Positions 10,655 through 60,736 of a stretch of 64,000 nt of DNA are shown piece by piece. Numbering within the stretch: the first letter of the stretch is position 1; every line of letters begins with the position of its first letter. This DNA comes from an uncultured Enterobacterales bacterium (GTDB lineage: Bacteria; Myxococcota_A; UBA796; CAJQPC01): contig CAZSAT010000023.1 of assembly GCA_964604675.1 (NCBI GenBank), forward strand, positions 3,228-67,227, written 5' to 3'. Made by a program: the position numbers and the translations under genes. The notes beneath the pieces were generated by a model, which did not search any database, was not told the DNA's origin, and worked only from the letters and a program-made list of their open reading frames with translations.

Positions 10655-10729
10655 TGACCCCAACGGGATTCGAACCCGTGTTGCCGGGATGAAAACCCGG
10701 TGTCCTGGACCTGACTAGACGATGGGGTC
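10655..10729 (-). tRNA. tRNA-Glu (TTC)
   Basis: Acceptor stem GACCCCA/TGGGGTC, anticodon arm CCGGG-TTTTCAT-CCCGG, T-loop GTTCGAATC; CCA not encoded. Confidence 0.96.
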
Positions 10730-10755
10730 TGAAGGAGCGCGCCGAGGGGACGGGG

Positions 10756-10828
10756 TGGGCCGCACAGGGCTCGAACCTGTGACCCTCGGCTTAAAAGGCC
10801 GGTGCTCTGCCAACTGAGCTAGCGGCCC
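10756..10828 (-). tRNA. tRNA-Lys (TTT)
   Basis: Acceptor stem GGGCCGC/GCGGCCC, D-arm GCTC/GAGC, anticodon loop CTTTTAA, GTTCGA T-loop; CCA not encoded. Confidence 0.96.
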
Positions 10829-32926: not shown

Positions 32927-33059
32927 CGACAAGGGCTCGACCTTAGCTTGTCGCGCGCACAACGGCACCGCTGTAAGCTGTGGTTGGCACCTGCCCGGTG
33001 CGTGCTTCGGTCGTTGTCATTGCGTCTCCTCCGTGCTGATCCCTCGGATCGATCTCTCG

Positions 33060-33200
33060 TCGTGGTGTGCATGCCCTCTCGCAGGGAAGCCTGAAGCGGC
33101 GACATCGGACCCCCCTGATTCATTCGGGAGGAGTCCGACAGGACCACGCGGCCAGGGCGGGGCCACCGCCCGCTCCCCGGTGAAAGGGGGGCGGGCTACC
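33060..33200. ncRNA. Candidate structured RNA or regulatory element between divergent genes
   Basis: Hairpins CGGAC-CCCCCTGA-TTCAT-TCGGGAGG-A-GTCCG and GCCCGCTCCCC-GGTGAAA-GGGGGGCGGGC (33168-33196); family not recognised. Confidence 0.35.
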
Positions 33201-55550: not shown

Positions 55551-58085
55551 TCAGTCGCGGCGGCGCCAGGCGAGCAGGCCGGCGACCACCAGGAGCACGC
55601 CGCCACTTCGCCGCAGCGGCGCCGTGGCACAGCCGAGCCCACCACCCTCGGTCGTGGTCTCGACGACCTCGGTGAACTGGGTGTACAGCTCGCCGGACGG
55701 GTACACCGCCACCTCGGCGAAGTCCCAGGCCTGGTTCCCGTCTTCGTCCTGGGCGACCACGTAGAAGCTGTAGACCTTGCCATCGGAGCCACTGGGCAAC
55801 TCGGGCGCGGTCCACGTCACCGTGGGCGCCGTGGGATCATCGATCGAGCCACCATCGGAGTCGAGCGACCAGGCGTACGACAGGTCCTGACCATCCGCGT
55901 CGAACACCAGGATGGAGAGCTGGATGCTCTCGGACTCTTCCACGGCGGTCTGTTCGGCCACGATGCCGCCGATGATCTCGGGCTCGGAGTCGATCTCCGT
56001 GCAGCCATCGTCCTGGACGCCGTTGCAGTCGTTGTCGAGCCCGTCGCAGATCTCGTCGGCAGCCGGATGCACGTCCGGGTTCTCGTCGTCGCAGTCGTTG
56101 TTGACGTCGGCGTAGCCATCGCCGTCGTCGTCGTAGAGCGAGGTGCCCTCATCGACCACGCCGTCGCAGTCGTTGTCCTTGCTGTCACCGTCCTCGGGGG
56201 CCGAGGGGTAGATGTCGCTGTCGAAGTCGTTGCAGTCGCCGTCGAGCTCGGTGGACCGGTCGCCGTCGTCGTCGTGACCGACCGTCGTCTCGTCGATGAT
56301 GTTGTCGCAGTCGTTGTCGAAGCCGTCGTAGATCTCGGCCGCCTCTGGGTAGGTGTACAGGTACTGATCGTCGCAGTCGTACCAGTCGTCCGTGCTGGCA
56401 TCGCCAAACCCGTCACCGTCGTCGTCCGCGTCGGCACCCGTGCCGTAGACGATCACCGACACCGACGCGTAGCCGCTGGTCTCTTCGTCGTCGGTGGCGG
56501 TGACGAGCAAGGTGTCGACACCGGGCTCGTAGTCCGACATGTCGATCTCGACCTGCATCCGGCCGTTCTCGGAGGTGGGGATGCAGTCCGCGACCTTGAT
56601 GCCCAGCTCGATCGTGCTCTTGACCTTGCAGGTGAGGCTGTCGACGGGCTGGTCCGGGTCGGTGACGGTGAGATCGAGCACGAGTGGGTCCGACGTGCCG
56701 TGCACGTAGCCGGGCTCCGGACTGTGGATGACGACGGTCGGCGGCTCGTTGTTCGGATCCTCACCGACGTTGCCCTGCAGGGACACCGCGAGATCCGGGT
56801 TGTCGACATCTGCGGACAGCACCGAGAGCGTGCACCGAGCCTCGCGATCGTCGGTGGGTGTGAAGGCCACCTCGATCAAGGTGCTCGTGTCGGCCGGGAG
56901 GATGGCGCCGTCCTCATAGGCCTCCACGACGACGTACGCTTCGTCGCAGTCGGCCGACAAGGTGGGCGCGAGCAGCCCGAGATCCGCATCGCCGGTGTTC
57001 TCCACCGAGATGTAGCCACGGGACTCCTCGCCAGGCCACCAGTGCCCGAAGTCCAGGGTGCGCGGGAGCACGCTGGCCTTGCCGGTGCCGAAATGACCCT
57101 GGCCGTAGAGGTAGACGACCTCGCGCTCGCGCGTGAGATCGCCCCAGTAGGCAGGCTCGAAGGAGCCATCGGAGCTCGCCGCACCGGTGTCGTCGGACCC
57201 TGAGGTCTCCTGCTGGGTGTGGGAGTCGATGATGAGAGAGCCGTAGGTGTCGCCGAGGTTGAAGGGCGAGAAGGACACGGTGAGATCGATCGAACAGCCC
57301 GACTCGAGCACGAACTCGACCTGGTCATCGGCCAGGCTCTGCTCCTCTTCCTCCTCTTCCTCCTCCGGTTCCGTCTCCTCTTCCTCCGCGCCGAAGTTGC
57401 CCTGGAGGCCGACGCTGACGGTCTCGTTCACAGGATCGTTGGTGAAGAGGAACAGCTCCCCCTGATCGCCGACCGAGTCGGCTTCGGGCGCGTAGAGGAC
57501 GAAGACCTCCTCGGAGTCCCCGGGAGCGATCTCGAGGCCTTCGGGGTCGTTCACGACCTGGAACGCGGAGGACCCGGCGTAGAACGCCTGATCGATGGAC
57601 AGGGCGCCGGCGCCTGCGTTGGCGATGCTGAAGAACTGCGTGTCGTTGCCCGGGTAGTTCACCTCGCCGAAGTCCATGCAGATGTTGGGGGCATCGGCCG
57701 CGCAGGCATCGGAGACGGAGCTCACGGCGATCTGCGCGACGCCGCCGCCACCGGTGTCGGCGATCTTCGCGTCCGCTTCCGCTGCACCCGTGTCGCCGGC
57801 ATCCGACGAGTCCGCCGGACAGACCACCGAGCTCGCGTCGTAGCCGACGGTGAAGGAGTCGGTGTGGCCCGCCCCGAGCTCGACGGTGCGAACGCCGAGA
57901 GCGAGATCGCCCTTGTTCGTGAGCGTGAACGAACGGGTGGCAGCGTCGCCGTACTCCACTTCGCCGAACTCGAGCCACTGCGAGGAGACCGACATGTCCG
58001 GGTAGTCCAGGTACTGGACCTCGGTGGTGGTCTTGTCACAGCCCGCGAGCGCGAGGAGTGCGAGCAGGATGGGCTTGCGGCGCAT
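55551..58085 (-). CDS. Large surface protein: lipobox, Ig-like (choice-of-anchor D-like) domains, 3 MopE-type repeats, MYXO-CTERM-like tail
   Basis: LAGC lipobox; LEFGEV...TLTNKG-type Ig units; three DDDGDG..DC.D....P.A.E..D..DNDC repeats (~56010-56430); C-terminal GGGLGCATAP + TM + RRRD. Confidence 0.8.
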   Translation of the reverse strand: MRRKPILLALLALAGCDKTTTEVQYLDYPDMSVSSQWLEFGEVEYGDAATRSFTLTNKGDLALGVRTVELGAGHTDSFTVGYDASSVVCPADSSDAGDTGAAEADAKIADTGGGGVAQIAVSSVSDACAADAPNICMDFGEVNYPGNDTQFFSIANAGAGALSIDQAFYAGSSAFQVVNDPEGLEIAPGDSEEVFVLYAPEADSVGDQGELFLFTNDPVNETVSVGLQGNFGAEEEETEPEEEEEEEEQSLADDQVEFVLESGCSIDLTVSFSPFNLGDTYGSLIIDSHTQQETSGSDDTGAASSDGSFEPAYWGDLTREREVVYLYGQGHFGTGKASVLPRTLDFGHWWPGEESRGYISVENTGDADLGLLAPTLSADCDEAYVVVEAYEDGAILPADTSTLIEVAFTPTDDREARCTLSVLSADVDNPDLAVSLQGNVGEDPNNEPPTVVIHSPEPGYVHGTSDPLVLDLTVTDPDQPVDSLTCKVKSTIELGIKVADCIPTSENGRMQVEIDMSDYEPGVDTLLVTATDDEETSGYASVSVIVYGTGADADDDGDGFGDASTDDWYDCDDQYLYTYPEAAEIYDGFDNDCDNIIDETTVGHDDDGDRSTELDGDCNDFDSDIYPSAPEDGDSKDNDCDGVVDEGTSLYDDDGDGYADVNNDCDDENPDVHPAADEICDGLDNDCNGVQDDGCTEIDSEPEIIGGIVAEQTAVEESESIQLSILVFDADGQDLSYAWSLDSDGGSIDDPTAPTVTWTAPELPSGSDGKVYSFYVVAQDEDGNQAWDFAEVAVYPSGELYTQFTEVVETTTEGGGLGCATAPLRRSGGVLLVVAGLLAWRRRD

Positions 58086-58896: not shown

Positions 58897-59172
58897 TCAG
58901 TCATTCAGGGCGTGCTTGAAGCCCTTGCCCGCGCGGAAGATCGGGATCCGGCAAGCGGCCACATCCATCTTCGCCCGCGTCTTGGGGTTCTGACCCTCGA
59001 AGGCCTTGCGGTGCGAGATCTGGAAGGTTCCGAAGTCGCTGATGGTCACCTTCTCCTCTTCGACCAGGGCCGCCCGGATCTCTTCGGTGAGGATGTTGAT
59101 GCACTCAGCCGCGCGCACCTTCGGCAGGTTGGCGCGCTCTGCGAGACGAGCGGTGAGATCGGCCTTGTTCAT
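58897..59172 (-). CDS. HU/IHF-family DNA-binding protein
   Basis: MNKADL...V.I.DFGTF...G.NPKT...P.F.AGK.FK. Confidence 0.95.
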   Translation of the reverse strand: MNKADLTARLAERANLPKVRAAECINILTEEIRAALVEEEKVTISDFGTFQISHRKAFEGQNPKTRAKMDVAACRIPIFRAGKGFKHALND

Positions 59173-59390: not shown

Positions 59391-60467
59391 TCAGCGCCGC
59401 GTCGCACCCGGGCGCCAGGCCGGAGCGGCCGAATCGTCGAGCAACGGCGAACGCAGCCAGCCGCCTCGAACCTGCAAGACCCGCTTCAAGCAACGCATCG
59501 AGACTGGCAGCTCCCCCGGCTGCTCACCATCGACATCGAGCAACGGCGGAGCACCTGCGTGCACGGAGGCGTCGAGACGGCGAACCTGGACGCGCACGAC
59601 CCCAGGAATCTTCGCGAGGCTGCCCTCATAGAGCCGCCACCCATGCGCCGCGAGACGGTGCGGCGGCAGGGGCGGAAGCACGGTCAGGTCGAACAGCCCA
59701 TCGTGCAACGTTCCCCCGCGTCCCACGAACATGCCGCCCCCGCAGTAGGCGCCGTTGGCCACGAAGGCGCTCATCAGGCGACCCGACCACGAGCCTGCCT
59801 GGCCTGCGGCGTCCTCCCAGGTCAACGAGACCTCGGGCGGCTCGTAGCTGCCGAGCGCCCCGACCGTGGCCTTCAGGAAGGTTGCGCGGCCGCCGAGTCG
59901 CTTCGACGACGCGTTCGCGCGCCGCACCACCTCGCCGTTGGCGCCGAACCCAGCCACGTTCAGGAAGACACGTTCGCGAACCTGCCCGCCCTCTTCATGA
60001 CGAAGGTGACCGACATCGGTGCGTAGGGTCATGCCGGTTGCAGCGATCCAGAAGGCCTCCTGGAGGGTGCCGGGCGCCAGCAGGCTACGAGAGAGATCGG
60101 AGCCGGTGCCCACGGGGATCAAGCTCAGCACGACCTTCGGGTCGAGGGGACGGTCCCCCTCGAAGAGTCCGTTGACGACCTCGTTGCACGTGCCGTCACC
60201 GCCGACGGACGCCACGAGGTCGGCGCCCGCCGCAACCGCCCTGGCCGCCAGCTCGGAGGCGTGTCCAGGCCCCTCGGTGACCCACACCTCGCCCGTCGCG
60301 AAGCAACGCGACATCGTCTGCTTGACCCGCTCCAAGAGACGACCGCCCTCGCCGGCCTTGGCGCGCGGGTTGAGGATGCACACGATCTGCTCGCTCTCGT
60401 TCCGCATGCGGCGAGCCGGATCCAGATCCGAGGGCGAGGGAACCTTGTAGCGGTACGGGTCGGACAC
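59391..60467 (-). CDS. Diacylglycerol/lipid kinase family protein (YegS/BmrU-like)
   Basis: LNPRA, GGDGTCNEVVNG, PVGTGSD, FLNVAGFG, VANG.Y.GGG, DVDGE. Confidence 0.9.
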   Translation of the reverse strand: MSDPYRYKVPSPSDLDPARRMRNESEQIVCILNPRAKAGEGGRLLERVKQTMSRCFATGEVWVTEGPGHASELAARAVAAGADLVASVGGDGTCNEVVNGLFEGDRPLDPKVVLSLIPVGTGSDLSRSLLAPGTLQEAFWIAATGMTLRTDVGHLRHEEGGQVRERVFLNVAGFGANGEVVRRANASSKRLGGRATFLKATVGALGSYEPPEVSLTWEDAAGQAGSWSGRLMSAFVANGAYCGGGMFVGRGGTLHDGLFDLTVLPPLPPHRLAAHGWRLYEGSLAKIPGVVRVQVRRLDASVHAGAPPLLDVDGEQPGELPVSMRCLKRVLQVRGGWLRSPLLDDSAAPAWRPGATRR

Positions 60468-60504
60468 ACCGCCGCCTATCGCGTGGCTGGTTCCGGAGCC
60501 CAGA

Positions 60505-60593
60505 GCAGCAAGGCCCGGTCACGAGGACCGGGCCTTGGTTGCGGCGAGGTCAGCGGAGGGAACTCCCAACCGGACCAGGTCTCGCGTCTCCGC
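60505..60593 (-). ncRNA. Candidate sigma54-dependent small RNA (~90 nt)
   Basis: The predicted +1 of the sigma54 promoter falls on GCGGAG, which can pair with CTCCGC 35 nt later. It ends in a perfect 12-bp hairpin CAAGGCCCGGTC-5 nt-GACCGGGCCTTG (60509-60537). No convincing ORF. Confidence 0.5.
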
Positions 60594-60603
60594 ACGAAAG
60601 ATA

Positions 60604-60619
60604 TGCAAGGTCGATGCCA
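60604..60619 (-). promoter_or_regulatory. Sigma54 -24/-12 promoter
   Basis: TGGCATC-GACC-TTGCA, near-consensus with exact GG-N10-GC spacing. AT-rich tract upstream; inverted repeat CGACAT-2-ATGTCG at 60708-60721. Confidence 0.7.
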
Positions 60620-60736
60620 AGCTCGGAAAAACCCGCGTATCCACCTGAATTTATAGCGAATACCGTTGACTGTCCGAAGCGAACCGGCGCGTTTGAGCGC
60701 GAAACCACGACATCCATGTCGCGATCGTGAGCAAGC

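Follow-up and report, generated by a model that had tools for sequence, protein, structure and literature searches.

The intergenic region described here probably carries an independent small RNA gene. The non-coding product, about 90-100 nt long, would be transcribed by means of sigma-54 and in dependence on an enhancer; from the DNA and its relatives we assign this reading a probability of roughly 0.7. The window, that is the whole stretch of DNA that was analysed, comprises 64 kb with a GC content of 69% (68.9% overall), is present in two subsurface-metagenome assemblies, and encodes proteins with matches in MAGs labelled Myxococcota. The conserved feature as such is real. A first-pass annotation had proposed a sigma-54-dependent small RNA gene at this place, and the proposal is supported, as the proposed promoter, enhancer, bend site, RNA, and terminator are conserved as a unit in 24 loci. 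The elements are located between an alpha/beta-hydrolase-like gene and the gene of a lipid kinase, which are separated by 269 bp. They are listed here together with the adjacent genes:

60739-60737, minus strand: stop codon of the alpha/beta-hydrolase-like gene upstream of the RNA
60708..60721, minus strand: palindrome CGACATGGATGTCG (CGACAT-GG-ATGTCG), read in the sequence; candidate upstream activator site (UAS), presumed to bind an enhancer-binding protein (bEBP)
60626..60662, minus strand: AT-rich spacer tract, which contains the IHF-like site
60638..60650, minus strand: IHF-consensus-like site ATTCAGGTGGATA, presumed bend site
60604..60619, minus strand: sigma-54 promoter TGGCATCGACCTTGCA (TGGCAT-CGACC-TTGCA, with -24 GG and -12 GC)
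60497..60593, minus strand: predicted non-coding RNA of about 90-100 nt
60583..60594, minus strand: SL1, tentative small hairpin at the 5' end (UGCG-GAGA-CGCG; purine-rich loop GAGA), from hand alignment A3
60548..60576, minus strand: P2, tentative central hairpin GGUC-CGG ... CCG-CU-GACC with a C-rich apical region
60541..60549, minus strand: conserved motif CCUCGCCGC (CCUCACCGC in most relatives), candidate seed; its columns are (near-)invariant in alignments A2 and A3
60509..60537, minus strand: P3, 12-bp GC-rich hairpin CAAGGCCCGGTC-CTCGT-GACCGGGCCTTG with a perfect stem, presumed intrinsic terminator
60497..60508, minus strand: conserved pyrimidine-rich tail CUGCUCUGGGCU, family form UUCUUUCUCUGGGG
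59391..60467, minus strand: lipid kinase of the DAGK/YegS family, GTG start codon at 60467; Pfam DAGK_cat and YegS_C, NCBIfam lipid kinase families
58897-59172, minus strand: HU/IHF-family gene, the second gene after the RNA

The promoter pattern TGGCAY-N5-TTGCW has one match in 64 kb if both strands are considered, with 0.04 matches expected; 4 of 100 shuffles gave a match. This unique match is the near-consensus sigma-54 box noticed in the first pass, and the box is kept in every locus. A loss of the -24/-12 element in relatives, which had been named beforehand as speaking against the small RNA gene, did not occur: GG-N10-GC is retained in 24 of 24 loci and the exact TGGCAY-N5-TTGCW in 13 of them, and the invariant GG and GC persist in variants like TGGTAC..TTGCT, TGGCAC..GTGCT, and TGGCCC..TTGCT. 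The nucleotide G60593 lies 12 nt downstream of the C in the -12 GC, and the RNA would start at about this position (+/- 2 nt). The 10 nt that separate this predicted +1 from the -12 box are unconserved. Of the 21 loci tabulated, nearly all have a conserved G(C/U)GGAGA motif starting 0-2 nt from +1. Sequence conservation in the relatives is resumed at the site that had been predicted as +1 (60593 in the window).

Upstream of the -24 box, the inverted repeat CGACAT-GG-ATGTCG reported earlier is present at 60721-60708, and the window contains no second perfect CGACA-N4-TGTCG. Across the family, the consensus reads CCACGACA-N4-TGTCGTGG, followed by TTT; its core GAC-N6-GTC is kept in 24 of 24 loci. 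The distance between the centre of the palindrome and the -24 GG is 96.5 bp in the window and 94.5-98.5 bp in 20 of 21 loci measured, corresponding to a spacer of 87-91 bp between palindrome and promoter, the sequence of which is unconserved. In the L213/L214 lineage (2766-2871), the spacer is 78 bp long and the distance from the centre is 85.5 bp, which is shorter by about 10-11 bp, i.e. one helical turn. The bases were lost downstream of the IHF-like motif and upstream of the -24 box, and the helical phase was preserved. Activator sites of sigma-54 promoters are expected about 80-150 bp upstream and in dependence on helical phase, and the distances observed fall into this range. A fixed distance that preserves phase over an unconserved spacer is what one expects of an activator site acting by looping, rather than of a mere terminator. 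In the window, 15 nt separate the palindrome from the preceding stop codon, which ends the upstream gene, and TTT follows the palindrome, so that it possibly doubles as the terminator of that gene; in L010 and L011, its distance to the closest ORF upstream is 80-246 nt. The earlier interpretation as an enhancer is in line with the retention of both the sequence and the distance to the -24 box in relatives, with protein binding being presumed. For the presumed activator, the operator sequence CCACGACATGGATGTCGTGG is proposed.

The spacer also contains the AT-rich tract to which the first reading had drawn attention: positions 60662-60626 have a GC content of 40.5%, compared with 68.9% for the window. 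Within this tract, ATTCAGGTGGATA agrees with the IHF consensus WATCAR-N4-TTR at 7 of 9 specified positions. The best match to this consensus in the 75 bp upstream of the promoter was determined for all 24 loci and compared with shuffled spacers. In 12 of the 24 loci the match has its first base at -31/-30 relative to TGGC and the orientation of the promoter, and it is perfect (9/9) in L006 and L215. The mean best score was 7.08, whereas the shuffles gave 6.24 +/- 0.13 with a maximum of 6.58 in 200; scores of at least 8 were reached by 7 loci versus 0.85 expected. The proposed bend site may thus correspond to this IHF-like motif, which occupies a fixed position in 12 loci and is more strongly represented than in shuffled spacers. 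Such a bend site is common, though not required, at sigma-54 promoters.

The relatives were collected as loci encoding homologues of the kinase, from one-genome-per-species contigs and public assemblies; among them, L010 is located on the complete chromosome OZ245034.1. All loci with a kinase at least 41% identical to that of the window and with upstream DNA available, which amount to 24 distinct Myxococcota sequences with kinase identities of 41-81%, contain the module on the kinase strand and in the same order: palindrome, spacer, -24/-12 box, and an RNA-like block closed by a GC-rich hairpin with a pyrimidine tail behind it. The profile built from this block detected all 25 syntenic loci at E < 1e-11 and nothing else convincing in about 1.3 Mb of sequence, with one RNA copy per locus. 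The module was not found in the more distant kinase loci of Myxococcaceae, Anaeromyxobacteraceae (Anaeromyxobacter), and Desulfobacterota. A scan of metagenomes with a DNA pattern for the RNA core yielded no further members: 119 of 120 matches were chance GC-rich hairpins, and the one real match duplicated L001. One of the chance matches, L085 (metagenome contig JAABUN010011634.1), contains more than 20 copies of an unrelated short GC-rich hairpin repeat.

The family profile matches the predicted RNA of the window with an nhmmer envelope of 60595-60497 (E = 4e-15). The 3' end of this RNA would be located 8-12 nt past the hairpin; if 8 nt are assumed, the predicted length varies between 81 and 103 nt across the loci. 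The 99-nt stretch beginning at 60593 folds with -49.5 kcal/mol (z = -2.93), which is better than 200 of 200 shuffles. That there is no plausible ORF, as had been stated, was borne out: no conserved ORF was found in the RNA region, the indels in relatives are not multiples of three, and the mechanical ORFs 60519-60644 and 60550-60717 begin upstream of the predicted start site. The Rfam comparison suggested in the first pass for the unannotated RNA yielded no family; with the covariance models of Rfam 15 there was no match in the RNA region at gathering thresholds, and at permissive thresholds the best hit reached 19.3 bits versus a threshold of 80 and covered the hairpin alone. The RNA family is thus absent from Rfam 15, and family, operator, and clade are undescribed in Rfam or in the literature found, whereas the kind of system is known.

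Only P3 is a firmly established helix of this RNA. The perfect 12-bp hairpin that had been described about 85 nt after +1 is present at 60537-60509, ending at +85. In the relatives, 96.4% of the alignment cells are paired and compensatory changes occur in 7 of 12 pairs; for example, an A-U pair of the window is a G-C pair in L201, the closest relative (kinase 81% identical). Covariation in relatives had been named as a check in the first-pass annotation, and the terminator hairpin does covary. In the lower-GC relatives L202 and L205, the hairpin is followed by a canonical U-run (UUUUUUUCUCUU and UUAUUUUUU, respectively), which supports the role of P3 as a terminator. The window has no U-run after P3, the tail being CUGCUCUG, and a terminator consensus scan did not call this hairpin.

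The helices SL1 and P2 are tentative, because A3 is a hand alignment which was fitted to the structure (with N as gap character) and because RNAalifold, applied to a MAFFT alignment and to the hand alignment, recovers the terminator alone and neither SL1 nor P2. On A3, 3 of 5 pairs of SL1 change on both sides and 77.7% of the cells are paired; the loop is extended in relatives to GAGA-N-GA, with the forms GAGA, GAAA, and GAGA-N3-5-GA. P2 is conserved in sequence and belongs to the MFE fold of most relatives, with almost no covariation on A3. Taken as a whole, the structure scores higher on A3 than any of 500 shuffles or of the slid controls, a result that has to be read in view of the fitting of this alignment to the structure. 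The GCGGAG/CTCCGC stem, at whose first G the RNA had been proposed to begin, can be formed in the window but is not conserved among the relatives: L201 retains 4 bp only, and L001 and L004 have none. Tentatively, the local GCG-GAGA-CGC hairpin seems to be the better supported of the two structures.

The 5' end of the RNA consists of a conserved purine-rich segment, GCGGAGACGCGAGAC, which is able to form the small GAGA-loop hairpin. In every member, this segment is complementary to the tail behind the terminal hairpin, and a closure of the molecule by this pairing appears in several MFE folds. Pairings identified by eye are GAGAGAGA with UCUUUCUC, GAGAUGAG with CUCACUC, and GAGAAAC with GUUUCUU. 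The tail may thus pair with the 5' GGAGA segment according to these folds; a test of cognate versus non-cognate duplexes for this long-range pairing was not significant (p = 0.09).

Three stretches that are partly unpaired and most conserved were considered as candidate seeds: GGAGACGC(R)AGA at the 5' end, the C-run, and the motif CCUC(A/G)CCGC. The motif CCUCGCCGC is predicted to be partly single-stranded, with a mean unpaired probability of about 0.4-0.6, and the conserved 5' GGAGACGC and CCUCACCGC are moderately unpaired by prediction. Duplex predictions against the start regions of the neighbouring genes gave large energies, which are uninformative in GC-rich sequence. A function as a CsrA sponge was rejected: just one or two GGA motifs exist and no repeat array, and the suggested CsrA binding found no support. 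Among public RNA runs, none was found to contain the sequence of the window or of L009; the runs available for L010, whose type is unrecorded (two long-contig assemblies and one short low-depth contig set), contain no transcript ends.

The minus-strand gene order in the window begins with two cNMP-binding proteins, followed by the alpha/beta-hydrolase-like protein, the RNA, and the lipid kinase, whose start codon lies 41 nt past the terminal hairpin and which may receive read-through transcription from the RNA promoter. Further downstream, an HU/IHF-family protein, GTP cyclohydrolase II (ribA), and a large protein with Cys-rich repeats are encoded. The latter (55551-58085, minus strand) has 844 aa, an N-terminal lipoprotein-like signal, and many D-x-D-C-D/N-Cys repeats; its orthologues give Cu-binding_MopE matches, and it is found downstream of ribA in all relatives, with TadE/Tad genes behind it. 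The HU/IHF-family gene, for which IHF alpha is the best NCBIfam match, below cut-off, remains the second gene after the RNA in each of the syntenic loci and thus in all close relatives. A functional link of this gene to the IHF-like site of the promoter is only a guess. Signatures of enhancer-binding proteins (GAFTGA, ESELFG, and GESGTGK/Walker A) were detected in none of the six frames of the 64-kb window; consequently, the activator of the RNA promoter should be encoded elsewhere.

This arrangement gives room for a different interpretation, which had already been offered for the lipid kinase gene as the alternative in the first pass: under the control of sigma-54, the transcript could serve as a cis-acting 5' leader or attenuator for the operon that follows, comprising the lipid kinase and possibly HU and ribA, with the hairpin as a conditional terminator that governs read-through. 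The next gene is on the same strand as the RNA in all loci, and the gap between hairpin and start codon, which spans 17-103 nt, is 17-41 nt in several loci (17 nt in L215, 26 nt in L208). Moreover, no sigma-70-type promoter was called in the region, the RNA-kinase-HU-ribA neighbourhood is highly syntenic among the relatives, and the window tail contains few U, so that termination may leak. However, the downstream gene depends on the clade, while RNA and promoter remain unchanged. The lipid kinase directly follows the RNA in 16 distinct loci; a GNAT acetyltransferase takes this position in L004 (3316-3963), L005, and L007; an FAD-linked oxidase and then a 4Fe-4S protein do so in L010, L011, and L015, where about 3 kb more lie between these genes and the kinase. 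For the other members of the L008-L016 group, the module has the same distance upstream of the kinase, and an FAD-linked oxidase is presumably present, judging from this position. This finding weakens the attenuated leader proposed for the lipid kinase, as the downstream gene is not always a kinase, and it speaks for an independent small RNA rather than for a leader specific to the kinase. Likewise, a conserved alternative antiterminator pairing was not found, and the terminators of the lower-GC relatives L202 and L205 are strong and canonical. In many loci, a TAT(A/G)NN-, GATAGG-, or TTAAAG-like hexamer precedes the kinase start by 5-8 nt (60475-60480, minus strand, in the window; also in L206, L209, L002, L001, and L208). 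It could be a -10 box, in which case the kinase may be expressed as a leaderless mRNA from its own promoter between hairpin and start codon. Owing to the same-strand gene and the short gaps of 17-41 nt, a leader role or read-through keeps some probability; on balance we regard a leader as unlikely.

Compared with known leaders of the riboswitch or attenuator type, the element shares a structured, conserved RNA and a terminator-like hairpin directly upstream of a same-strand gene; it differs by the varying downstream families, by the failure to find a conserved alternative pairing, and by the lack of an Rfam match.

The closest known parallel to a small RNA gene of this design is Pxr of Myxococcus, which has a sigma-54 promoter with an enhancer region, a length of 108 nt, and three stem-loops, and whose GC-rich last stem contains a conserved segment needed for accumulation; myxobacteria have been reported to lack Hfq (PMC5568312, PMC5684412). 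Both RNAs belong to the same phylum and to Hfq-less organisms, combine a sigma-54 promoter with an upstream enhancer region, measure about 100 nt (by prediction in the new RNA) with several predicted stem-loops, and occupy a conserved intergenic position. With respect to the three-stem-loop design, the new RNA agrees in its promoter, and three hairpins can be drawn, of which the last one alone is established.

Could the new RNA be a divergent homologue of Pxr, so that the origin of the Pxr family would predate the Cystobacterineae? In addition to the common promoter with upstream enhancer, the length, the multiple stem-loops, and a C-rich loop, both have a last stem with the conserved core CCCGG(U)/(A)CCGGG and a tail of the form UUCUUUU..GGG, as far as the primer-derived Pxr fragments show. 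In Myxococcus xanthus the GNAT gene pxrA directly follows pxr (PMC11928866), which resembles the GNAT gene behind the RNA in L004, L005, and L007; pxrA was, however, reported in Myxococcus only (PMC11928866), and CCCGG hairpins are common by chance, as is evident from the 119 of 120 unrelated matches of the metagenome scan. For a direct comparison with nhmmer, pxr was rebuilt from the published primer table except for 14 nt. The family profile scored about 3 bits on the Pxr fragments, confined to the 3' arm of the terminator, and nothing on the near-complete Pxr. An identity with Pxr was thus rejected at the level of sequence profiles (nhmmer at most 3 bits, terminator arm only), given a Pxr sequence lacking 14 nt. 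Furthermore, the neighbours differ: Pxr is flanked by the activator gene pxrR/nla19 and by pxrA or an NADH dehydrogenase gene, whereas the new RNA is flanked by the alpha/beta-hydrolase-like gene and the lipid kinase and lacks an adjacent gene for an enhancer-binding protein. Finally, Pxr occurs in Myxococcus xanthus and other Cystobacterineae, whereas the new RNA occurs in uncultured Myxococcota and its module was not found in the kinase loci of Myxococcaceae and Anaeromyxobacter. Homology is therefore very improbable in our view, and the new RNA, which resembles Pxr in promoter architecture, was not filed as Pxr.

That the motifs co-occur by chance without a functional RNA, with the palindrome being merely the terminator of the upstream gene, might be argued from its place directly behind a stop codon and in front of TTT and from the ease with which GC-rich genomes fold, but this is effectively refuted by conservation, since an ordered module with fixed spacing recurs in 24 loci although the kinases there share no more than 41-81% identity with that of the window, and since the palindrome of L010 and L011 is 80-246 nt away from any upstream ORF.

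Other bacteria possess small RNA genes of comparable design. GlmY and GlmZ of Enterobacteria have a sigma-54 promoter, upstream sites for the activator GlrR/QseF, and IHF sites, and act via RapZ and glmS. The new RNA shares with them the sigma-54 promoter and, as candidate sites, those for an activator and for IHF; sequence and structure are unrelated, and the phylum is a different one. Qrr1-5 of Vibrio and CrcZ, CrcY, and NrsZ of Pseudomonas depend on sigma-54 and on the enhancer-binding protein of a two-component system (LuxO, CbrB, and NtrC); CrcZ also involves IHF. These RNAs are Hfq- or Crc-dependent and often occur in multiple copies, whereas the new RNA is present as a single copy per locus and showed no sequence similarity to them in the Rfam search.

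For the preferred reading of an independent, sigma-54-dependent small RNA gene, we infer the following mode of action from the conserved order and spacing of the elements. A dimeric enhancer-binding protein would bind to CCACGACA-N4-TGTCGTGG, the centre of which precedes the -24 GG by about 96 bp, and a protein of the IHF/HU type would bend the AT-rich spacer at the WATCAR-N4-TTR-like site about 31 bp upstream of -24. The bend would enable the activator to contact the closed complex at TGGCAT-N5-TTGCA, and transcription would begin near G60593; as at sigma-54 promoters in general, it would require RpoN and the hydrolysis of ATP by the enhancer-binding protein. The resulting RNA would consist of the purine-rich 5' segment, the central C-rich hairpin, the CCUC(A/G)CCGC motif, the covarying GC-rich terminator, and the pyrimidine tail. 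Most likely it would act in trans, base-pairing via a conserved, partly unpaired segment; partial read-through into the downstream gene is possible in addition.

A more far-reaching idea, which is decidedly speculative and which we consider rather improbable, is that the RNA represents a second Pxr-like, sigma-54-gated RNA of a broad and largely uncultured branch of Myxococcota, which either is anciently related to Pxr or arose independently of it. This RNA would have a dedicated enhancer-binding protein and a molecule closed by pairing of the 5' purine segment with the tail, and would perhaps control a lifestyle or an envelope/lipid programme in the way in which Pxr gates development.

The number of known sigma-54-dependent small RNAs is small (Qrr, GlmY/Z, CrcZ/Y, NrsZ, and Pxr), and each of them is located at a key regulatory decision point. 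Myxococcota have dozens of enhancer-binding proteins, most of which are without a known target. With the present locus, a complete, phylogenetically footprinted unit of presumed enhancer, IHF-like site, promoter, and RNA is now defined in uncultured lineages, and the precise operator sequence offers a handle on the cognate activator and its regulon. The loci moreover constitute a new RNA family for Rfam and a basis of comparison for the origin of Pxr-type regulators in bacteria without Hfq.

Two further findings concern RNA genes elsewhere in the window. A 6S RNA gene was identified at 32985-33167 on the plus strand with 55.8 bits, a score exceeding the threshold of Rfam. Two tRNA genes lie side by side at 10655-10828 on the minus strand.
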